A DNA stretch of 64,000 nucleotides from Escherichia phage PSD2001, in the sequence record OK254198.1. One strand, given 5' to 3'. Every line of letters begins with the position of its first letter. The first letter of the stretch is position 1. The translations under genes and the position numbers were made by a program. Positions 7,629-60,349 of the stretch are shown one piece after another. The notes beneath the pieces are model-generated. The model made no database searches and was not told the origin of the DNA. It saw only the letters and a program-made list of their open reading frames with translations.

Positions 7629-7658
7629 ATTATATTAGCATAAAATTTTTAAAGCAAT
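7629..7658 (-). promoter_or_regulatory. MotA-dependent middle promoter for rnh (MotA box ATTGCTTTA plus -10 TATAAT)
   Basis: Reverse complement reads ATTGCTTTA-N12/15-TAATATAAT, ~25 nt upstream of the rnh ATG. Confidence 0.6.
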
Positions 7659-7665
7659 ATAAATA
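7657..7665 (+). promoter_or_regulatory. T4-type late promoter (TATAAATA) for gene 34
   Basis: TATAAATA ~35 nt upstream of the gene 34 ATG. Confidence 0.7.
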
Positions 7666-19446: not shown

Positions 19447-19907
19447 TAGTAAAGGTCCTCTGAATAAAGTTCTTTCTCACTACCGCCACGTTCAATACGC
19501 ACCTGATTTGCATAAGTCGCAATAATCATTGCTTCTTCGCGGGTCCAGTAATTGCTGTATTGGTCAATAAACCCTTGGTTATCACCGCAAACATGGTCTG
19601 ACACAAGTTTATCACTTACCTGGTCAAGCACTTCTGCCATATCTTTTGAATAATGTCTGGCACCAGGAATAACCAGAGTCCCACCATCTTTTAACTTAAA
19701 GCGGTTGGCTGCGCACACAATCCTGCGCTGATATTTTTCATTGTTGTTCCAATGAGCAATCTGCCAACAGATTTCAGGAACTTCCTTTAGAATATCTTCT
19801 TCTGTGCATTTATAACCATGTGCTTTAAATTTTTCAGCAAGACTTTCTGGAGTCTCACGAGATAAAGGAACATTCAGCATTTTTAAACGATTAATAAATG
19901 GGTTCAT
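19446..19907 (-). CDS. hypothetical protein (153 aa)
   Basis: ORF track; 1-nt overlap with neighbours. Confidence 0.55.
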
Positions 19908-20236
19908 TTAAACCATCCTTTAACACGTTGCCACAGACTTTTCTGTTGAGCTTTATTAACACCAATTGAGCGAATAACTGGTTGTGATTCCAGGTATTCT
20001 TTATAGTCAGCTTTATAGACTTCATATGCTGCTGGAACAAAGGCACCAATCGCCGCCATGAAGTTCTTGCGAGCACCAAATGGAGCTACTGCATCATCCT
20101 GGCGATGGATAAGATACTGACCAGCTTTGACCTTGACAATAGTCCCAAGGTAAGCGCCATGATACCAAACATCCCAACCCTCTTGAGTAGGTTCTACGCA
20201 AGCACGCAATTCATTAACAATATTCAGCTTATTCAT
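19904..20236 (-). CDS. hypothetical protein (110 aa), motA.1-like position
   Basis: ORF track. Confidence 0.5.
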
Positions 20237-20243
20237 AATTTCC

Positions 20244-20852
20244 TCACTTTAAGATGTTAATAACATGTTGAATGTTTTCAGTTGACATATGATTGTCAAT
20301 GTAGGTATTCAATCCACCTACTTTAACGCTAAATCCCACGTCTGTAAACTGTTTTACTATCTTTTGTTCAGTATTATACGCATGCACGCGAATCTGACCA
20401 TCACGACGTACATCAATCTGTTTTAATGTCTTGACACGCTTGAACTTCACAATCAGATTGCTGCGGTCTTCTGAAATGCTCTTAAAGTCAATACCAATAG
20501 ACAACAATTGCTCTTTGATATATTCTGCAGTCGCTTCCATTTCATCAGTCACACCGCGTTTTGTTCTTGTCTTCTTCACTTCCAGAAGGTCAGGATTATT
20601 TTCATTCGCCCAAAGTTCAGCTGCATCCAGAATAAGGTCAACGCCTTTTTCTGTAACCATCAAACCATCACCAGAAGCTTCAACATAGTTGTTATTCAAC
20701 AATGTCTGCACACTATCAATTGATGTGTTCTGCTGGTCTAAAACAACCTCTGGACTCACGAAGTTGTTTTTGTATACAAACACCAGAGCATTGACATCAG
20801 TCTCATGCAGCGCGTTCTGGGAGCATTTAACGATATAATTTAACTTGTTCAC
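20244..20852 (-). CDS. motA: middle-transcription activator MotA
   Basis: 202 aa; SGDGL motif and overall resemblance to T4 MotA. Confidence 0.85.
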   Translation of the reverse strand: MNKLNYIVKCSQNALHETDVNALVFVYKNNFVSPEVVLDQQNTSIDSVQTLLNNNYVEASGDGLMVTEKGVDLILDAAELWANENNPDLLEVKKTRTKRGVTDEMEATAEYIKEQLLSIGIDFKSISEDRSNLIVKFKRVKTLKQIDVRRDGQIRVHAYNTEQKIVKQFTDVGFSVKVGGLNTYIDNHMSTENIQHVINILK

Positions 20853-20854
20853 AA

Positions 20855-21082
20855 TTATCCCTTAATAGATTTCATGTAATTTGATGCATATGATTGTACC
20901 ACAGTACGTTTCATATGGGAAGTAGAAACAATCACATCAATTGCTTGTTTACGTTCTTCTTTAGAGTTTGCCAGTTTGAACATGTCAAAGTAGTAGTAGC
21001 AAGCTTCTTTGTTAGATTTGAATTTGATGTTGATGTATTCTTGACCTTCATTCTGTTGTGCAGTAAACATTTTATTCTCCAA
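20855..21082 (-). CDS. hypothetical protein (75 aa)
   Basis: ORF track; early promoter cassette immediately upstream. Confidence 0.5.
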   Translation of the reverse strand: MENKMFTAQQNEGQEYINIKFKSNKEACYYYFDMFKLANSKEERKQAIDVIVSTSHMKRTVVQSYASNYMKSIKG

Positions 21083-21098
21083 AGTTTTTGTGATTCAG

Positions 21099-21151
21099 TG
21101 TGTAACTCAGTATGGAATCATTATGTCCTAAGACAAGGGGGTTGTACACTA
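21099..21151. repeat. 53-bp exact direct repeat, copy 1 (partner at ~47422-47474)
   Basis: tgtgtaactcagtatggaatcattatgtcctaagacaagggggttgtacacta read identically at both places. Confidence 0.85.
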
Positions 21152-21160
21152 CTTTTTTTA
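21119..21160 (-). promoter_or_regulatory. early promoter cassette (copy inside the 53-bp exact repeat)
   Basis: cattat...gttgtacactactttttttaaaa; upstream of 20855..21082. Confidence 0.65.
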
Positions 21161-21170
21161 AAATAAAAAA

Positions 21171-21186
21171 GGACCCCGAAGGGTCC
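21171..21186 (-). terminator. rho-independent terminator after the gene 52 unit
   Basis: ggaccccGAAgggtcc with a T-run on the minus strand. Confidence 0.7.
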
Positions 21187-21284
21187 TAGTCTTTATCTAT
21201 CTTATTACCAATAAACATACCAACAATCACACCTGCGATTGCCGCAAAAATACAAAGCAATGCAAACTCAACTCCAAAACTCAT
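21186..21284 (-). CDS. small hydrophobic peptide (32 aa), translationally coupled to the gene 52 stop; not in ORF track
   Basis: ATGA overlap with gene 52 stop; MSFGVEFALLCIFAAIAGVIVGMFIGNKIDKD; ends inside the terminator hairpin. Confidence 0.4.
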   Translation of the reverse strand: MSFGVEFALLCIFAAIAGVIVGMFIGNKIDKD

Positions 21285-22660
21285 AGAGCCTCCAAGTCAT
21301 TAAGGTATTCAGTTTTAACATCAGTTGTCTTCCAGTATTCATGCTCAGCTTTCTTAGCCTTTGCTTCGTCTGCAAGCTTCTTGGCTTCATCAGAGGTCAT
21401 ATGGTAGATGTTCATCGCCACTAACTTCTCTGCATAATCGCCATATATTTCACTTGCCTGGAGTTCCTCAATCAACTTCTTACGAGGTTTCCCCTGGATA
21501 ACAACCTTACCGTCAATCACTTCTTTAATAAAGAAGACTTTTGCCCGGGCCAGTTTAAATGCTGCTTCAGTTTCTTTAATCTTACTGTCAATTCGCACTT
21601 GAACATAAGTCTTACGGACATCAACGAAATCGCGAATCAGGTCAAGCGTGTTGGTGTATTCGGCCAGCTTACCTTTGTGATTAAGCACCGTTAAGTTCTG
21701 GGAGAGCTTCTCAATCAGACCGAAGTCTTTCATGATTTTCTCATGATTCTCTTCTTCAGTACCATCCAACTTGTATTCTTTGCGGAATTTAATCTTAAAC
21801 CCAAAACCATGCTCGCCGCAGTTATCTTTCCAGGTGATAAAACCTTTCTCTTCCAGCGGGTCCAGGATTTTACTTGTATACTTTTCCAGGTTCCATTGGA
21901 CCGGGATTTCAGTAATTTCCATTTGGGTCCTGGAGGTCATTTTGTATGTGCCATGAAGTTCATACTTACCAGGCTCTTCCAGCTCAACAACTTCACCGCG
22001 GAATTCTGGATATTTTACTTTCGGAGCAACCGGCTCACGACCTTCCACGATAGCTTTAACAGCTTCCTTGACGTCCTGGAACGAATGAGGAAGTATATCA
22101 GTAGCGAAGCCAACAGCAATCCCAGAAGTGGCGTTAAGTAATACAGTAGGAATAACAGGAAGATAAAAAGCAGGAGGCTTATGTTCTTCATCAGGATGGA
22201 CCGGAGCATATTCTGTATCCTTAAACAAGTTATAAAAGTTCTTTGAAACCCTTGCGAATACATAACGAGCTGATGATGCTTCTGGCACCATTCTGGAACC
22301 AAAGTTGCCTTGCCCATCAAACATGGGGTATTCATTTTTATATGTTGCGACCAGACCAGAAGTTGCTTCTTCCGCCGATGCTTCGCCATGGTGATAACCA
22401 TAATCAGCTACGCCGCCGGCGATAGATGCAACTTTATGGAATTTATTCTTATCACCACGAGCCAGGTCTAATGCTCTCGCCATAACAAATCTGTGAACTG
22501 GTTTAAAACCATCAATCATGTTTGGGATGGCACGACCTTCCACAGTGTAGATAGCATATGATAATGCTTCCACATCAATAATGTCTTTTAGACTGCGTGG
22601 GTTAAGGGTCCCCATGGAATCACTGAACTGTTTGGACATCATACTTAAAACGTCAGACAT
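21281..22660 (-). CDS. 52: DNA topoisomerase II medium subunit gp52
   Basis: 459 aa; GyrA/ParC-like N-terminus (...AIPNMIDGFKPVHRFV...) as in T4 gp52. Confidence 0.93.
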   Translation of the reverse strand: MSDVLSMMSKQFSDSMGTLNPRSLKDIIDVEALSYAIYTVEGRAIPNMIDGFKPVHRFVMARALDLARGDKNKFHKVASIAGGVADYGYHHGEASAEEATSGLVATYKNEYPMFDGQGNFGSRMVPEASSARYVFARVSKNFYNLFKDTEYAPVHPDEEHKPPAFYLPVIPTVLLNATSGIAVGFATDILPHSFQDVKEAVKAIVEGREPVAPKVKYPEFRGEVVELEEPGKYELHGTYKMTSRTQMEITEIPVQWNLEKYTSKILDPLEEKGFITWKDNCGEHGFGFKIKFRKEYKLDGTEEENHEKIMKDFGLIEKLSQNLTVLNHKGKLAEYTNTLDLIRDFVDVRKTYVQVRIDSKIKETEAAFKLARAKVFFIKEVIDGKVVIQGKPRKKLIEELQASEIYGDYAEKLVAMNIYHMTSDEAKKLADEAKAKKAEHEYWKTTDVKTEYLNDLEAL

Positions 22661-42174: not shown

Positions 42175-42456
42175 TTACAATTTGGCGGCTTGGACTGCTT
42201 TATTGGCTTCAGTCATTTTAGCTAGATTTTCAGCAGTAGGATTGACAATGTATTCGGCTGTAGCTTGAGCAAAAACATTATGAGTTTCGATTACATTTTT
42301 AGCATTTTCAATATTCATATCAATTTCTTGTTTAGATAAATTTTTTAGTTGATTGGCTAAGAGTTCTACAAAGATTTCAACATTAGCGTTTTCAATTATA
42401 TCATTAATATGCTTCTTACGAGCTTTCTTAAGCTGACGTTTATTTAAACGAGGCAT
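42175..42456 (-). CDS. hypothetical protein (93 aa)
   Basis: ORF track; start overlaps the gene 56 stop. Confidence 0.5.
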   Translation of the reverse strand: MPRLNKRQLKKARKKHINDIIENANVEIFVELLANQLKNLSKQEIDMNIENAKNVIETHNVFAQATAEYIVNPTAENLAKMTEANKAVQAAKL

Positions 42457-42974
42457 TAATAACCTCGGTCCTGACGAGCAAAGTTCTCGGCATTTTTCAG
42501 GTAATACAGTTTAAAGATTTCTTCTGCAGTCAGTCCAAGACCATGGAACATATTTAGAACGAAATGTAGAATATCAATCATCTCGAATTTAATTTCTAGC
42601 TGGTCTTCAGGAGACAATTCATCAATACGACGATTACGGAATTCAGCATGTTGCGCTTTCCACGGCTTCCAGCAACTGGATGCGGCTTTCTCACCATTAG
42701 ACATGCCACCGAGCGAAGTCAGAAGTTCACGGAATTCGTCGTCAACATAATCTTTCTGGTTGCGAAGCCATGCAACAACATCGCCTGCGGTTGCCAATTC
42801 ATCTGGATGTGCGTTATATTCTGGTTTTTCTGTAGCCAGACGAACCTGCAAAGATTTCTGCATATCAAGCATAATCTGCAGAGGGTCATCATTGCCTTTT
42901 AGGACATCATTATACGCATCTTGCGCTTTATCAACACCAGCAATCAGTTGAGAACACTCGTTAAAATGAGCCAT
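42456..42974 (-). CDS. 56: dCTP pyrophosphatase (dCTPase/dUTPase, MazG-like) gp56
   Basis: 172 aa from Met with AAGGA RBS; size and position of T4 gp56; MazG-like helical pattern. Confidence 0.8.
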   Translation of the reverse strand: MAHFNECSQLIAGVDKAQDAYNDVLKGNDDPLQIMLDMQKSLQVRLATEKPEYNAHPDELATAGDVVAWLRNQKDYVDDEFRELLTSLGGMSNGEKAASSCWKPWKAQHAEFRNRRIDELSPEDQLEIKFEMIDILHFVLNMFHGLGLTAEEIFKLYYLKNAENFARQDRGY

Positions 42975-43058
42975 TATATTTTTCCTTATCAATTCATATT
43001 GTTTGTATGTTAATTATATCATATTGGTTTAAAGCATAAATACAAGAAAGGAGGATGT

Positions 43059-43256
43059 ATGCTCAAACTATCTAGTCTAATTCAAGCCATCAAAGGCAGT
43101 CGTAAGCGAACGATTCTGGTCCTTTCGATACTCTGTTTTGTTCTACTCTGGAATTTCATTGTTGCCCCTATTGCATTGACACATGGTGTTATATTACCAG
43201 TCGTCGCGCTCGAATCAGTTGTAGATGTTTCACTAGCATTAATCGGCCTTATATAG
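43059..43256 (+). CDS. small membrane protein (65 aa) on the opposite strand to its neighbours
   Basis: Strong AAGGAGG RBS; two hydrophobic helices; ATAAATA late-promoter-like motif ~30 nt upstream. Confidence 0.5.
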   Translation: MLKLSSLIQAIKGSRKRTILVLSILCFVLLWNFIVAPIALTHGVILPVVALESVVDVSLALIGLI

Positions 43257-43364
43257 GTGGAACTTACTGGTTGTGCCCATCGCTGCAACACAAGGGGTGC
43301 ACTTACCCCAGGTCACAATGGAACATATCCATTCCATCATCGGTTACTTTACCGGAATCCCTTC

Positions 43365-44393
43365 CTAAACTTTTGCGTACTTCGAAAGTCGCATTCTCGC
43401 CATCAATCCTTGAGCAACGTTATCGGCCATATATGATTCGATTTGTTCAGGGGTTGCCCCTTCTGATTTAACCATCTCATTTATGTCTTTTGTATGCCAT
43501 GGCGCATTGTCCCAGAACATAACAGCTTCGCCAGCTTCAACGAGCTTCTTCATACGTTTAATCGTATCCGGATGTCTTGGCTCGTTGTCCATCACCCACA
43601 CTCTGGTTTCTGGATAAGGAACAGCTTCTAATGCTAATGTTCCACCGGTTATCGCAATGCTGTTAGGGATAAACAAACTATCAATCGGACCTTCCATTAC
43701 CCATACACGTTTACGCTCATCAATCTTGTCTACGCCATAGACTTTGGAAGCTTCTGGGTGAGCTTTGATTGTGATATATTTTTGTGGTGCATCTTTGCGA
43801 AGAGCTCGTCCTTGGAAAGATTCGATTTCTTTTTTGCCGTTGAAGATAGGAATAACCAAGCGTGGTTCATTCGTTTCATTCTTATACGTCCCAGGATTAA
43901 CGGAGTTAACTAATGCAGGCCATTGGTTTGTAAACCATAGTCGGTTCCAAACATTGCTTGGAATACATCGACTTTTTACATACTTAACTATCGGATGTGC
44001 TTCTGGTAAAGTATCGAGTCTTTCACAAAAAGCAAGCTGCTCGATAACCGGAGTTTTTTCTGGTTCTTTCGGAGTTTCAATGACTTCATTGCGTTGTCGC
44101 CCGAAGGCGTTCTCCTTGTACTTCTCAACCATATATTCCCGGTGTAAATCAGGCTCAAACTCTTTTATGTATTTGCTTATATGCGTGGAGTAGTCACAGT
44201 TAAAACATTTCACATAAACCGCACCATCAGACGGATTGGTATACGCCCAGAATCGAGCCTTGTGTGAATCTTTCTGGGAGTCCCCGCAAACCTTACAACG
44301 ACAGTTTGCTTTAAATGTGCTCCCGGTGACTTCTCTATAACGTGGTTGATACGATAAAGCTCTGACTGCAAATTCTTTATCAATATATGACAT
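43365..44393 (-). CDS. 61: DNA primase gp61
   Basis: 342 aa; N-terminal zinc-ribbon CRCKVCGDS...CFNC; same length as T4 gp61. Confidence 0.93.
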   Translation of the reverse strand: MSYIDKEFAVRALSYQPRYREVTGSTFKANCRCKVCGDSQKDSHKARFWAYTNPSDGAVYVKCFNCDYSTHISKYIKEFEPDLHREYMVEKYKENAFGRQRNEVIETPKEPEKTPVIEQLAFCERLDTLPEAHPIVKYVKSRCIPSNVWNRLWFTNQWPALVNSVNPGTYKNETNEPRLVIPIFNGKKEIESFQGRALRKDAPQKYITIKAHPEASKVYGVDKIDERKRVWVMEGPIDSLFIPNSIAITGGTLALEAVPYPETRVWVMDNEPRHPDTIKRMKKLVEAGEAVMFWDNAPWHTKDINEMVKSEGATPEQIESYMADNVAQGLMARMRLSKYAKV

Positions 44394-44424: not shown

Positions 44425-44592
44425 TTATACTGTAGGTTTATCGTCTTTGTTCTTACGCTTTTTTGATGGGATTTGTTCAGGGCCTTTATTGACAACTGCC
44501 CCGGAAGTGGTACCTGTTGCGATATTAGTTGGGTTTCCACCTGCATCGCCAGCAACCATATCTTCGTTGATAAAATCTTTGAATGTTTTCAT
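44425..44592 (-). CDS. hypothetical small protein (55 aa); not in ORF track
   Basis: Hand-translated MKTFKDFINEDMVAGDAGGNPTNIATGTTSG...; G-rich RBS; coordinates approximate. Confidence 0.35.
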   Translation of the reverse strand: MKTFKDFINEDMVAGDAGGNPTNIATGTTSGAVVNKGPEQIPSKKRKNKDDKPTV

Positions 44593-57280: not shown

Positions 57281-57712
57281 TTAAGCAACAACTGCCATTT
57301 GTTTGCGGATAGCTTCTGGAAGAGATTCAATATACTCTGGAAGTTGCGCAGCAATAATAGAACCAGCTTGCGCCAGATGGTCATCAGAGTTAACACAATA
57401 ATCATCTTCAAGACGTTCGGAACCGTCACGGTCGATAACCAGTTTAGCACCAGCAGCCAGTGAATCGTTGTAATGACGTTGCATCAGTTCAATCCACTTA
57501 TCAGATACATCAGTATCAATCACACCGTACAGCATGAATTTAACTTCTTGAGGAAGTGATTTCAAACGGGTGGCAGATACTTCATCACATGCCAGGACCC
57601 AGGATTTGCGGATGCGGTTTTGGTTATGTGGGTTAGCGTCGGTGCGGATGGTTTTAACTTGGATATCTTTAGCAGTTACGTTGTTCATAATATTCTCTCT
57701 ATTCATTATCAA
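57281..57712 (-). CDS. hypothetical protein (143 aa) in the T4 rpbA position (RNA polymerase binding protein A)
   Basis: Position between 45 and 46; sequence not verified from memory. Confidence 0.5.
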   Translation of the reverse strand: MIMNRENIMNNVTAKDIQVKTIRTDANPHNQNRIRKSWVLACDEVSATRLKSLPQEVKFMLYGVIDTDVSDKWIELMQRHYNDSLAAGAKLVIDRDGSERLEDDYCVNSDDHLAQAGSIIAAQLPEYIESLPEAIRKQMAVVA

Positions 57713-57931: not shown

Positions 57932-58666
57932 ACAAGGGTCTGATATGAATTATAACATCATTTACCAAAAGCTTATTAGCAGAGCATTGAATCGCAAATT
58001 AACCACATACTCTGAAAGTCATCACATTATACCCCGTTGTATGGGTGGGGCAGACGATGCTTCAAATCTTGTTGATTTAACTCCCGAGGAACATTTCGTT
58101 TGTCATCAACTGTTGGTCAAAATGCATCCAAATAATGCTTCTTTGGTCTATGCCGCGCGCATGATGACAGTTTCCTCACCAAACGCCGACAGAAGCAAAA
58201 ACAAATTATTTGGATGGCTTCGTCGTAAAAACTTGGAAGCTCAACAAAATAAAATTTTCTCCGATGAAACCAGAAAGAAAATGTCAGAATCCGCCAAATT
58301 AAAACCGAGAGTTGAATGTCCACACTGTGGAAAAACCGGTCTCGTTGGCAATATGAATCGTTGGCATTTTGATAACTGTTCCAAAGGTCCAAACAAGGTT
58401 GTTCATACTATTCCAGAAAAACAAAAGCAAAAAATTTCAGTAGGATTAAAACAAGCTAAACATGAAATTTTAACTTGTGAATTTTGTGGTCTTGAAGGTA
58501 AAAAGTGTGTTATATCCACTCACCAACAATTCTGCAAATCCAATCCAAACCGGAAGAAAAAGGTGGACCCCAAAATTCAGTGTCCACATTGTAATGTAGT
58601 CGGTACGCCAGCCAATATGAAACGTTGGCATTTTGATAACTGCAAAATGAAGCCTCAATAAGAGGC
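57932..58666 (+). mobile_element. putative homing endonuclease insertion between 45.2 and 46
   Basis: Single oppositely oriented HNH gene filling an intergenic slot in a conserved replication gene block; boundaries inferred. Confidence 0.5.
57945..58661 (+). CDS. free-standing HNH homing endonuclease (mob-like) with tandem zinc-binding repeats
   Basis: 238 aa from internal Met; HNH motif SHHIIPRCMGGADDASNLVDLTPEEHFVCH; repeats CPHCGKTGLVGNMNRWHFDNC / CPHCNVVGTPANMKRWHFDNC; opposite strand to all neighbours. Confidence 0.8.
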   Translation: MNYNIIYQKLISRALNRKLTTYSESHHIIPRCMGGADDASNLVDLTPEEHFVCHQLLVKMHPNNASLVYAARMMTVSSPNADRSKNKLFGWLRRKNLEAQQNKIFSDETRKKMSESAKLKPRVECPHCGKTGLVGNMNRWHFDNCSKGPNKVVHTIPEKQKQKISVGLKQAKHEILTCEFCGLEGKKCVISTHQQFCKSNPNRKKKVDPKIQCPHCNVVGTPANMKRWHFDNCKMKPQ

Positions 58667-60349
58667 TCATTCCAGAACAGTAAATCGACCGACTTTTTTC
58701 ATTTGAAGATGCTGCCCATATGCTTCTGGGTCGTGTTCACGATGGCTAATGATAAACACGTTTTGACCTTCCAATTTATTAATAATTGCCTGGATAGCTT
58801 TGATGCCTTCGGCGTCAGTGGCTGAATCCATGACCTCATCCAGAATCAACGTACTAATTTGCACACCAGATACTTTCGCAGCAATATCACGCCATGTAAA
58901 CAGCAATGCAATATCGATACGAGCTTTTTCGCCCTGGCTAAATGATGCATAGCTGAAGTCTTCACGTCCACGAGATTTAATCGTTTCGTTGAACTCTTCA
59001 TCTAACGTAAAACTATAATCAGCTTCCATAACTTTAAGGTAAGCGTTTATCTGCTTATTAAAGATAGGAATATATTTCTTAATAATCGCACCTTTGATAC
59101 CAGAATCTTTCAACATATCCGTTAGGATGCCACGTTGATATTTTTCCATCACAAGGTCAGATTTCTGTTTGACTATTTTATCAAGCTGGTCTTGAAGCAT
59201 TTTAATGTCTGCTGCATGGTCAATAAATTCTGACTTAGCTTGCTCGATTAATGCTTTAACCTTTTTAGCCTTTTCAACAGTCTGGACTAAGGTTTGTTTC
59301 TTAGTTTGAATGTCTTGGGCTATTGTACGCTGGTTTTGTCTTGCAGCAGAATACGTATCAAATTGCTCCTGAACAGCATTCTGACGAGCTTTATGCTTAT
59401 CAGCTGATGCATTACATTCTTCAATCTTTGACTCAATCCTGGCGACAATGGGGTCTCCTGGATGCAACTGACTGGCACAAGTCTGACAGCAACCACCTTT
59501 CTCGTACAGACCAACAACCTTTCGGTAATCGTCAATCTTCGATTTAATCAGGAATGATTCCTGCTTTAACTTCGTGAGTTCATGCTCAGGGTCTTCTCCC
59601 AAGATTATCTCGGTCAGTCTTGTCGTTGCTTCTTCGATAGTCGTTTTGATTCCACGTGCTTCCGTGGCAAGTTCATCATACATCGTTTGCAGCCGCAACA
59701 GATTATCACCTGATAATTTTCTTTGACGGTCTTCGTTGTCCTGATAGATTTTAATCTGTTGAACAATACCATCATGCTGCACATCCATCACCTGGATTTG
59801 ACTATTGACTTCGCGGATAAGAGATTTGTTCAGCTTATCCATATCGGCCAGTACAGAAACCTCTAAAAGGTCTTCGACAAGTTTTCTTCTTGCAGGAGTG
59901 GATAGGCCCATAAAAGGGGTATATCCAGCTGTGCCGAGTACGACAATCTGTTTGAAGCTTGCATAGGACATTCCGATAAGCTGTTCAAATTCTGCTTGGA
60001 AGTCTTTACTGCTGGCAGATTCATCAAGACGTTTACCGCCACAAGAGATTTCAAAAACATTGGGTTTTTGCCCGCGTTTGATATAGTATTCTTTTCCATC
60101 ATATTCCATCCACAATTCAACGAGCATATCTTTTTTGTTGCTCGAGTTAATCAACTGGCCTTTCTTTACATCACGGAAAGGCTTACCGAACATAGCAAAG
60201 GTAACCGCTTCAAGGAACGTAGATTTACCCGCACCATTCTTACCGGTGACCAGAGTTTTTTGGACTTTATCCAGTTCAACAGTAATCGGTTGAGCACCAA
60301 CCGACATAATATTTTTATAGATAACTTTCTTAAGCTTAAAAGTCTTCAC
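58667..60349 (-). CDS. 46: recombination endonuclease subunit gp46 (Rad50/SbcC-like ATPase)
   Basis: 560 aa; Walker A GKNGAGKSTFLEA; coiled-coil middle; same length as T4 gp46. Confidence 0.95.
   Translation of the reverse strand: MKTFKLKKVIYKNIMSVGAQPITVELDKVQKTLVTGKNGAGKSTFLEAVTFAMFGKPFRDVKKGQLINSSNKKDMLVELWMEYDGKEYYIKRGQKPNVFEISCGGKRLDESASSKDFQAEFEQLIGMSYASFKQIVVLGTAGYTPFMGLSTPARRKLVEDLLEVSVLADMDKLNKSLIREVNSQIQVMDVQHDGIVQQIKIYQDNEDRQRKLSGDNLLRLQTMYDELATEARGIKTTIEEATTRLTEIILGEDPEHELTKLKQESFLIKSKIDDYRKVVGLYEKGGCCQTCASQLHPGDPIVARIESKIEECNASADKHKARQNAVQEQFDTYSAARQNQRTIAQDIQTKKQTLVQTVEKAKKVKALIEQAKSEFIDHAADIKMLQDQLDKIVKQKSDLVMEKYQRGILTDMLKDSGIKGAIIKKYIPIFNKQINAYLKVMEADYSFTLDEEFNETIKSRGREDFSYASFSQGEKARIDIALLFTWRDIAAKVSGVQISTLILDEVMDSATDAEGIKAIQAIINKLEGQNVFIISHREHDPEAYGQHLQMKKVGRFTVLE

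Follow-up and report, generated by a model that had tools for sequence, protein, structure and literature searches.

The T-even gene dam.1 in Escherichia phage PSD2001: a conserved, probably late gene for a predicted small inner-membrane protein

Among the small envelope proteins of phage T4, Imm and Sp (Spackle) are encoded by early genes, and the antiholin RI is composed of a releasable signal-anchor and a globular periplasmic domain. The T4 reference genome also contains, between dam and gene 61, an intact 66-amino-acid (aa) open reading frame (ORF; NC_000866, 17738..17938, plus strand) which is unannotated in NC_000866.4 and AF158101.6 and appears as 'hypothetical protein' in some newer T4 records. 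Here, we analyze its counterpart in Escherichia phage PSD2001, a 65-aa ORF on the plus strand of a 64,000-nucleotide (nt) stretch of record OK254198.1 (the window). The gene is not new: it is the Gaprivervirus-type ortholog of an uncharacterised gene, dam.1, found in most enterobacterial T-even phages. We consider it likely that the ORF is a real conserved gene, expressed late, and that its product is a small inner-membrane protein.

The ORF product matches PHROG 2024 ('unknown function') over the entire profile (E = 2.7e-26, residues 1-65 on profile positions 1-65 of 65), and this group was the top scorer in the profile searches with the product. By tblastn, we found the family in 718 phage records, with the T4-type records carrying an intact ORF in 500 of 503 cases. 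The hosts of these phages are Escherichia, Shigella, Yersinia, Salmonella, Citrobacter, Klebsiella, and Enterobacter. For comparison, 941 phage records encode a gp61 with an identity of 60% or more to that of the window. No family member was detected by tblastn in the phage records of Aeromonas, Vibrio, and cyanobacterial relatives of T4, and a profile search of 1.84 billion representative proteins yielded 18 clusters only, all of 45-82 aa. The dam.1 family is small and narrowly distributed. The window protein and the T4 copy are alike in length (65-66 aa) and 49% identical from end to end.

The family goes under several names. It is RB32ORF030w in RB32-type phages, dam.1 in phage T4T (HM137666, ADJ39749), and mostly 'hypothetical protein' elsewhere. 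Some records say more: that of phage EAWsc9 has 'holin family protein', the UniProt entry of phage OE5505 has 'Holin', and 'putative transmembrane protein' also occurs, with no evidence stated for these labels. Two further labels, 'putative head morphogenesis protein' (phage BW-1) and 'DNA packaging ATPase' (SAKp28), were treated as noise. Literature searches gave no paper on the dam.1 / RB32ORF030w gene, and one candidate paper, on CmdTAC, turned out not to concern it.

The sequences of the family members have the properties expected of a protein-coding gene. For close pairs with enough substitutions (T4 and the RB32 type, two Mosigviruses, L016b and phiC120), the Nei-Gojobori dN/dS ratio is 0.07-0.16, and for distant pairs, in which synonymous sites are near saturation, it is 0.11-0.32. 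In 17 diverse members, down to 28% identity, residues W31, N32, P37, G43, P47, and V49 are invariant, and in nearly all members an acidic residue stands at or beside position 52, being E52 in the window protein. The conserved core, W-N-[FYL]-x3-P-x5-G-x3-P-x-V-x-[LVM]-[ED], is present both in the window protein and in distant members. The dam.1-family ORF evolves under purifying selection. A minus-strand ORF at 43082..43291 was considered as the true gene instead, and rejected, as it lacks a counterpart in T4 and the selection fits the plus frame. The first-pass annotation of the window, made from its letters alone, had proposed the plus-strand gene and had named disruption of the ORF in close relatives as an outcome that would speak against it. 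With 698 of the 718 phage records intact (at least 80% of the length covered) and dN/dS well under one, the gene is real; what the annotation did not know is that it is already entered as a hypothetical protein in hundreds of genomes.

T4 late promoters are defined by an 8-bp TATAAATA box at positions -13 to -6, and, among the 50 sites listed by Geiduschek and Kassavetis, 32 are perfect, nine have A at -13, and most others show another single deviation (PMC2988020). The T at -13 is poorly conserved among related phages, as reported by Nolan et al. (PMC1524935). Upstream of the 65-aa ORF, we found the box CATAAATA, in which the C at -13 is the only departure from this consensus. The ATAAATA motif that drew the attention of the first-pass annotation is indeed there (43036..43042, plus strand), but the 3' end of the box lies 16 nt before the ATG rather than ~30 nt, the distance given there.

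The box is conserved well beyond the window. In ten of twelve representatives of diverged lineages, a NATAAATA box occupies -23..-30 relative to the ATG; the remaining two show TTAAATA instead. The intergenic DNA of these twelve loci is no longer alignable, and shuffled upstream regions give a chance of ~0.012 per locus. The resulting binomial tail of ~6e-18 overstates the significance, because the lineages share ancestry. The base at -13 varies, being C in the window, G in T4 (where the box reads GATAAATA), A in the RB32 type and Mosigvirus, and T in the Klebsiella and Kanagawavirus types. Moreover, the GenBank record of phage Lutter has an 8-bp plus-strand promoter annotated ~20 nt before its own copy of the ORF. 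GGAG(G) is found at the equivalent position in every homologous locus examined.

The motif is no random A/T stretch. Within the window, ATAAATA is rare, with ten sites compared to 21 +/- 4.6 expected, an approximately two-fold depletion. Nine of the ten precede a Shine-Dalgarno sequence and a start codon on the same strand by 16-56 nt, which is why the motif appears to be selected against, save at sites where it functions as a late promoter. The genes that follow these sites include gp34, the ORF at the gp36 position, the holin gene t (Pfam Phage_holin_T, E = 2.4e-66), and soc. The layout of box, Shine-Dalgarno sequence, and ATG is the same for the late genes gp34, t, and soc as for the 65-aa ORF, with 16 nt from box to ATG in the latter and 18 nt in t. 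Further ATAAATA sites lie before a 55-aa ORF at the position of T4 gene 61.1 (44425..44592, minus strand), a 50-aa ORF (start 30237, minus strand), and a DUF5496 ORF (start 504, minus strand).

Late transcription of the 65-aa ORF, as suggested by the first-pass annotation, thus appears well supported by comparison: the spacing between box and ATG stays constant in genera between which the intergenic DNA can no longer be aligned, and the Lutter annotation agrees with it. The late transcript is predicted to start near 43048. Early and middle T4 transcripts are all of opposite polarity (PMC2988020), and only one sigma-70-like sequence precedes the ORF on the plus strand, TTCATA-18-TATCAT at 42993..43022, a weak match (9 of 12) of a kind found at chance frequency.

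Two related features of the box count against late expression. The base at -13 is C, and the box overlaps the MotA-type middle promoter of gene 56, which stands back to back with it on the other strand and shares a few bases with it. The C at -13 in place of T is explained as the complement of the G in TGCTT, so that both strands constrain the box over its first two or three bases. The MotA-type pattern occurs nine times in the window, against 1.8 expected. The same back-to-back layout of a middle and a late promoter is seen at the late promoter of gene 34 (7632..7665). The gene 56 promoter itself probably corresponds to that of gene 56 in T4, which gives rise to the transcript named oriA primer RNA in the T4 record.

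In T-even genomes, the family gene is almost always on the plus strand and tail to tail with the primase gene 61, as it is in the window, with a 4-nt overlap between their stop codons in most cases (the T4, RB32, Klebsiella-phage, Moonvirus, and Mosigvirus types). The neighbour on the other side varies and may be gene 56, dam, or small ORFs resembling NTP pyrophosphohydrolases; in one metagenomic contig, the family gene adjoins dam rather than gene 61. The overlap of the stop codons raises the possibility that only the RNA matters, with a late transcript running antisense into gene 61 to silence residual primase mRNA and the ORF being incidental. T4 is known to transcribe both strands of some sites at different times (PMC2988020), and we found no convincing terminator after the ORF in the window (fold z-scores of -1.3 and -1.1, and a plus-strand hairpin with no T-run). 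Still, selection acts on the amino acids, with W, N, P, G, and P invariant across ~30% identity, the strong Shine-Dalgarno sequence is conserved, and unrelated phages lacking a downstream gene 61 also encode homologs. Because conservation is at the protein level, we reject the RNA as the main role and rate this explanation as extremely unlikely; antisense transcription into gene 61 may well occur as a side effect of late transcription.

The family is comprised of two sequence types, type A beginning with 'M.KL..LI.AIKGNKK' and type B with 'MGT[IL]FYQIWKL'. In contig L016, both types are intact and stand in tandem, the second copy having no box of its own. In the window, the 108-nt gap between the ORF and gene 61 holds a type-B remnant (Table 1), which is identical to the Klebsiella-phage type at 26 of 34 aligned residues and still overlaps the gene 61 stop codon by 4 nt. 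The gap had also been considered as a terminator or a structured RNA, and this was rejected given the z-scores above and the presence of the remnant, which explains the gap. Phage EAWsc9 has kept a different, frameshifted piece of the paralog (L001, 2303..2424). The differing fragments and the tandem in L016 indicate that the ancestor had both copies and that type B decayed independently by lineage. Such decay points to redundancy and to a role that may be accessory rather than essential.

The coordinates of the locus are collected in Table 1. The ORF, its AAGGAGG ribosome-binding site, and its orientation opposite to both flanking genes are exactly as first annotated; genes 56 and 61, both on the minus strand, were identified by PHROG and Pfam matches. 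The gene directly past gene 56 is soc (Pfam Soc, E = 1e-17), and the 2 kb around the ORF are 95-97% identical to phages DCP80, 212, P896, and SP18. The window phage is a T-even phage of the Gaprivervirus type.

Table 1. Features of the dam.1 locus in the window.
Feature	Position	Strand	Remarks
Late-promoter-like box CATAAATA	43035..43042	+	7/8 match to T4 consensus TATAAATA, positions -13 to -6
Shine-Dalgarno sequence AAGGAGG of the 65-aa ORF	43048..43054	+	GGAGG to ATG, 4 nt
65-aa coding sequence of the dam.1 / RB32ORF030w / PHROG 2024 family	43059..43256	+	ATG start, intact
Type-B paralog remnant, C-terminal 37 codons, WNLLVVPIAATQGVHLPQVTMEHIHSIIGYFTGIPS*	43258..43368	+	local tblastn match 43246..43326, E = 3.6e-6
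MotA-type middle promoter of gene 56, TTATGCTTTA-N11-TATAAT (TGCTTTA-N11-TATAAT)	43013..43036	-	perfect pattern match
Gene 56 (dCTPase/dUTPase), divergent neighbour	42456..42974	-	PHROG 173 NTP pyrophosphohydrolase, E = 3e-44; Pfam dUTPase_2
Gene 61 (DNA primase), convergent neighbour	43365..44393	-	PHROG 47 DNA primase, E = 4e-94

The protein was annotated at first as a two-helix membrane protein. Hydropathy, the distribution of charges, and the AlphaFold2 model all point to a membrane protein, but only one of the two helices is strong. Residues 18-40, with a mean Kyte-Doolittle value of 2.5, form one firm transmembrane (TM) helix. The second hydrophobic stretch (about 44-65) is of a different kind, as its residues 51-65 combine a hydrophobic with an amphipathic (hydrophobic moment 1.35) and acidic character, the latter through E52 and D56. 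The AlphaFold2 model, based on an alignment of 17 sequences (mean pLDDT 79.5), has a short amphipathic helix at residues 2-11, a long one at 15-41, and, after a nine-residue loop (42-50), a C-terminal helix of 11 residues at 51-61. Foldseek found no structural match in the PDB, the BFVD matches were members of the same family only, a sequence-profile search of the PDB gave nothing meaningful (best E = 0.11), and no Pfam (E <= 0.1), relevant NCBIfam (E <= 1), or PADLOC family was matched by the product.

In 124 family members, the part before the TM helix has on average 4.6 K/R and 1.0 D/E, and the part after it 0.14 K/R and 1.65 D/E. This is a clear positive-inside signal, which predicts a cytoplasmic N-terminus, and, because of the same charge split, the 25-residue C-terminal part would be periplasmic or rest on the membrane's outer face. 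A complete second membrane span seems less likely, since the acidic residue of the C-terminal stretch is often followed by H, K, E, or Q. The conserved residues cluster in the loop and at the outer end of the TM helix, and we take this cluster to be the working surface of the protein.

These features suggest the following scheme. Late in infection, RNA polymerase with gp55/gp33 and the gp45 clamp would initiate ~6 nt past the box, producing an mRNA with an 11-nt leader. The product would be inserted in the inner membrane by a single TM helix at residues ~18-40, its basic N-terminus staying in the cytoplasm, so that the W-N...P...G...P-x-V-x-L-(E/D) segment and the short acidic amphipathic helix would be placed at or beyond the periplasmic face. 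There, the conserved periplasm-proximal motif would bind another envelope protein late in infection. As our leading, though tentative, proposal, the protein could have an accessory role in lysis timing or lysis inhibition, as a helper or a brake of the T holin system and not as the holin itself. A broader version, which we regard as rather unlikely, is that the Dam.1 family is an overlooked late envelope component of enterobacterial T-even phages, for example setting the firing of the T holin or stabilising lysis inhibition, that is shared with a group of enterobacterial prophages and is, maybe, the actual holin there; the lack of the gene in the T4 reference annotation could then explain why it escaped notice for decades.

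The first-pass annotation had suggested a part in lysis timing or exclusion, for which the backing is weak. The one positive hint at lysis comes from other phages, in which distant homologs are found near spanin-like and endolysin genes. Uncultured siphophages and enterobacterial prophages carry distant members of the family (PHROG 2024, E from 1e-9 to 4e-4) in a recurring late-operon order: a tail-tip gene, a protein with a TM segment and a coiled coil, an endonuclease VII-like protein, the small ORF, a ~180-aa basic protein, and a ~100-aa protein. This module was seen at four loci (L029, L017, L020, and L023), the first of which (19646..21459) is a prophage of E. coli PSS-15 (NZ_AP027709, ~3.376-3.378 Mb). 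The TM and coiled-coil protein is 81-153 aa long and twice had weak matches to Rz-like spanins (E ~1e-3), and the ~180-aa protein matches PHROG 1924 'minor tail protein' (E = 7e-8). In some contigs, the module is followed by a T4-type lysozyme, for which a Kyte-Doolittle scan revealed no N-terminal hydrophobic segment, and then by terS. In PSS-15, the start and stop codons overlap; therefore, the small ORF belongs to the late operon and is not a separately promoted insert, and late expression seems to be common to the family. As to lysis, the distant homologs offer no more than a suggestive link.

Neither Pfam nor the PDB gave a match for the 180-aa and 100-aa partners, and their homologs are only hypothetical proteins in enterobacterial prophages; no homolog was detected in the window, and DCP80 was the only phage record with them. 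The 180-aa protein is present in chromosomes of E. coli, Klebsiella, Citrobacter, Enterobacter, Serratia, and Pantoea. A 2.2-kb metagenomic contig encodes a 59-aa family member and, immediately after it, a 352-aa protein with a RelA/SpoT domain (L022, 129..1383).

The record of 'Escherichia phage DCP80' (140,978 bp, labelled Gaprivervirus; examined as L025, PQ671644.1 14614..33141) looks chimeric. A stretch of ~16 kb in it, which encodes a tail tip of siphophage type, endonuclease VII, a family member, an endolysin, and terS, has no match in the window and abuts DNA of the motA region which in translated comparison is ~87-100% identical to the window at the amino-acid level. The family member, unannotated and 57 aa long, is at L025 8798..8971. 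Between the spanin-like gene and the endolysin of this region, no other ORF is a candidate for a holin, and none is found before terS either.

A role in lysis has to be weighed against a number of observations. The product has no holin HMM match and no similarity to the T4 holin, antiholin, Imm, or Spackle families (Pfam, E <= 0.1; NCBIfam). A canonical T holin (Pfam, E = 2.4e-66) is encoded 25 kb from the ORF. It is established genetics that T4 t mutants do not lyse, and hence Dam.1 cannot suffice as the T4 holin. In T-even genomes, the family gene is not linked to lysis genes, the window ORF lying between genes 56 and 61, and the PSS-15 homolog stands among tail-end genes with no endolysin nearby. 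The protein lacks the basic charged C-terminal tail, ending with ...SLALIGLI, and also a dual start, as the only Met is at position 1 (MLKLSS...) and no second in-frame start is present near the N-terminus.

The same observations bear on the stronger possibility that the protein itself forms the lysis hole, as a true holin or pinholin, in line with the labels in EAWsc9 and OE5505. The small size, the one or two hydrophobic segments, and the position of the DCP80 homolog as the lone holin candidate in a spanin-endolysin region would fit. However, only one of six holin features examined, small size with a TM helix, was found; the charged tail, the dual start, the HMM match, and the linkage to an endolysin (loose even for the distant siphophage homologs) are all missing, the T holin is already present, and no evidence is given with the labels. 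We rate a true holin as very unlikely, and, on these grounds, the dam.1 protein should not be filed as a holin.

An alternative to an accessory lysis role is that the gene encodes a late factor of superinfection exclusion or inter-phage competition, a small inner-membrane protein that stops secondary phages from injecting their DNA, or handicaps them in another way, during the long lysis-inhibited state. The gene lies in a hyperplastic, gene-swapping region with adjoining homing-endonuclease insertions, and its tandem divergent paralog types, one of them decayed, suggest an accessory gene with fast turnover. It has also diverged somewhat faster than its neighbours, given the identity to the T4 copy cited above as compared to ~61% for gp61 to T4-type phages. 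Exclusion genes often sit just after the tail-tip gene, and so do the prophage homologs. On the other hand, the protein does not resemble the Imm or Spackle families, a spackle gene is already present ~2 kb away, T4 exclusion proteins are early while the 65-aa ORF has a late-type box only, and the prophage copies are translationally coupled within a late operon and not separately promoted inserts. We consider exclusion to be an unlikely, though not negligible, role.

Elsewhere in the window, a 238-aa ORF (57945..58661, plus strand) with an HNH-like motif (HHIIPRCMGG...) and zinc-ribbon repeats has CATAAATA 35 nt upstream and looks like a free-standing homing endonuclease. It is located between a minus-strand 143-aa ORF at the T4 rpbA position (57281..57712) and a 560-aa ORF at the T4 gene 46 position (58667..60349).

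The tail-end location in siphophages and prophages also suggests a membrane-bound assembly helper for late morphogenesis, acting, for example, in prohead initiation or in tail or fibre assembly at the inner membrane. Apparently late expression would agree with this, as would the operon shared with tail-end genes and the PHROG 1924 match of the adjacent 180-aa protein. However, the partners of the module have no homolog in the window and are confined to DCP80 among phage records, one paralog was dispensable, having become a pseudogene, and the family was not detected in the T4-like phages of Aeromonas, Vibrio, and cyanobacteria, which have the same core morphogenetic genes. An assembly role seems distinctly unlikely. 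The probability that is left falls to functions other than those considered here.

The main results of the analysis are the link to the unannotated dam.1 of T4, the conserved late box, the topology and motif of the protein, the paralog remnant, and the homologs in late operons of prophages. T4 ranks with the most thoroughly studied viruses, yet array, RNA-seq, and knock-down screens on annotated genes skip dam.1, because it is missing from the T4 reference annotation (NC_000866, AF158101), and one published T4 RNA-seq study counted annotated genes only. If a role in lysis timing, lysis inhibition, or exclusion is true, dam.1 would be a new player in a classic system and could matter for the engineering of therapeutic T-even phages. 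If deletion has no phenotype, it would be one more accessory gene.

Among known systems, class II holins and pinholins, such as S21 of phage 21, resemble the window protein, as predicted here, in being small (~65-70 aa), late, and N-in, with two hydrophobic stretches and a short turn. In the window protein, by contrast, the second stretch is short, amphipathic, and acidic, and the protein has no basic tail, dual start, HMM similarity, or endolysin neighbour.

Like the window protein, Imm and Spackle of T4 are small T-even envelope proteins encoded in the same general early-gene neighbourhood. Unlike them, the window protein is encoded on the opposite strand, behind a late-type box, and has no similarity to Imm_superinfect (PF14373) or T4_Spackle (PF25676) at Pfam E <= 0.1. 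In place of an early sigma-70 promoter of the Imm/Spackle type, there is only a weak chance-level site, and the conserved element is the late box. The likeness to the RI antiholin is by functional analogy only, both being small envelope proteins with an N-terminal membrane segment and a known or, here, possible part in lysis timing; the two are not homologous, and the window protein has only ~25 residues beyond its TM helix.

Within the family, the ortholog for comparison is dam.1 of T4 itself, which shares with the window gene the W-N...P...G...P-x-V motif, the strong Shine-Dalgarno sequence, the NATAAATA box, and the tail-to-tail arrangement with gene 61. The differences are in the surroundings. 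In T4, the other neighbour is dam and the stop codon of the ORF overlaps that of gene 61, whereas in the window the other neighbour is gene 56, and the remnant of the second paralog separates the ORF from gene 61.

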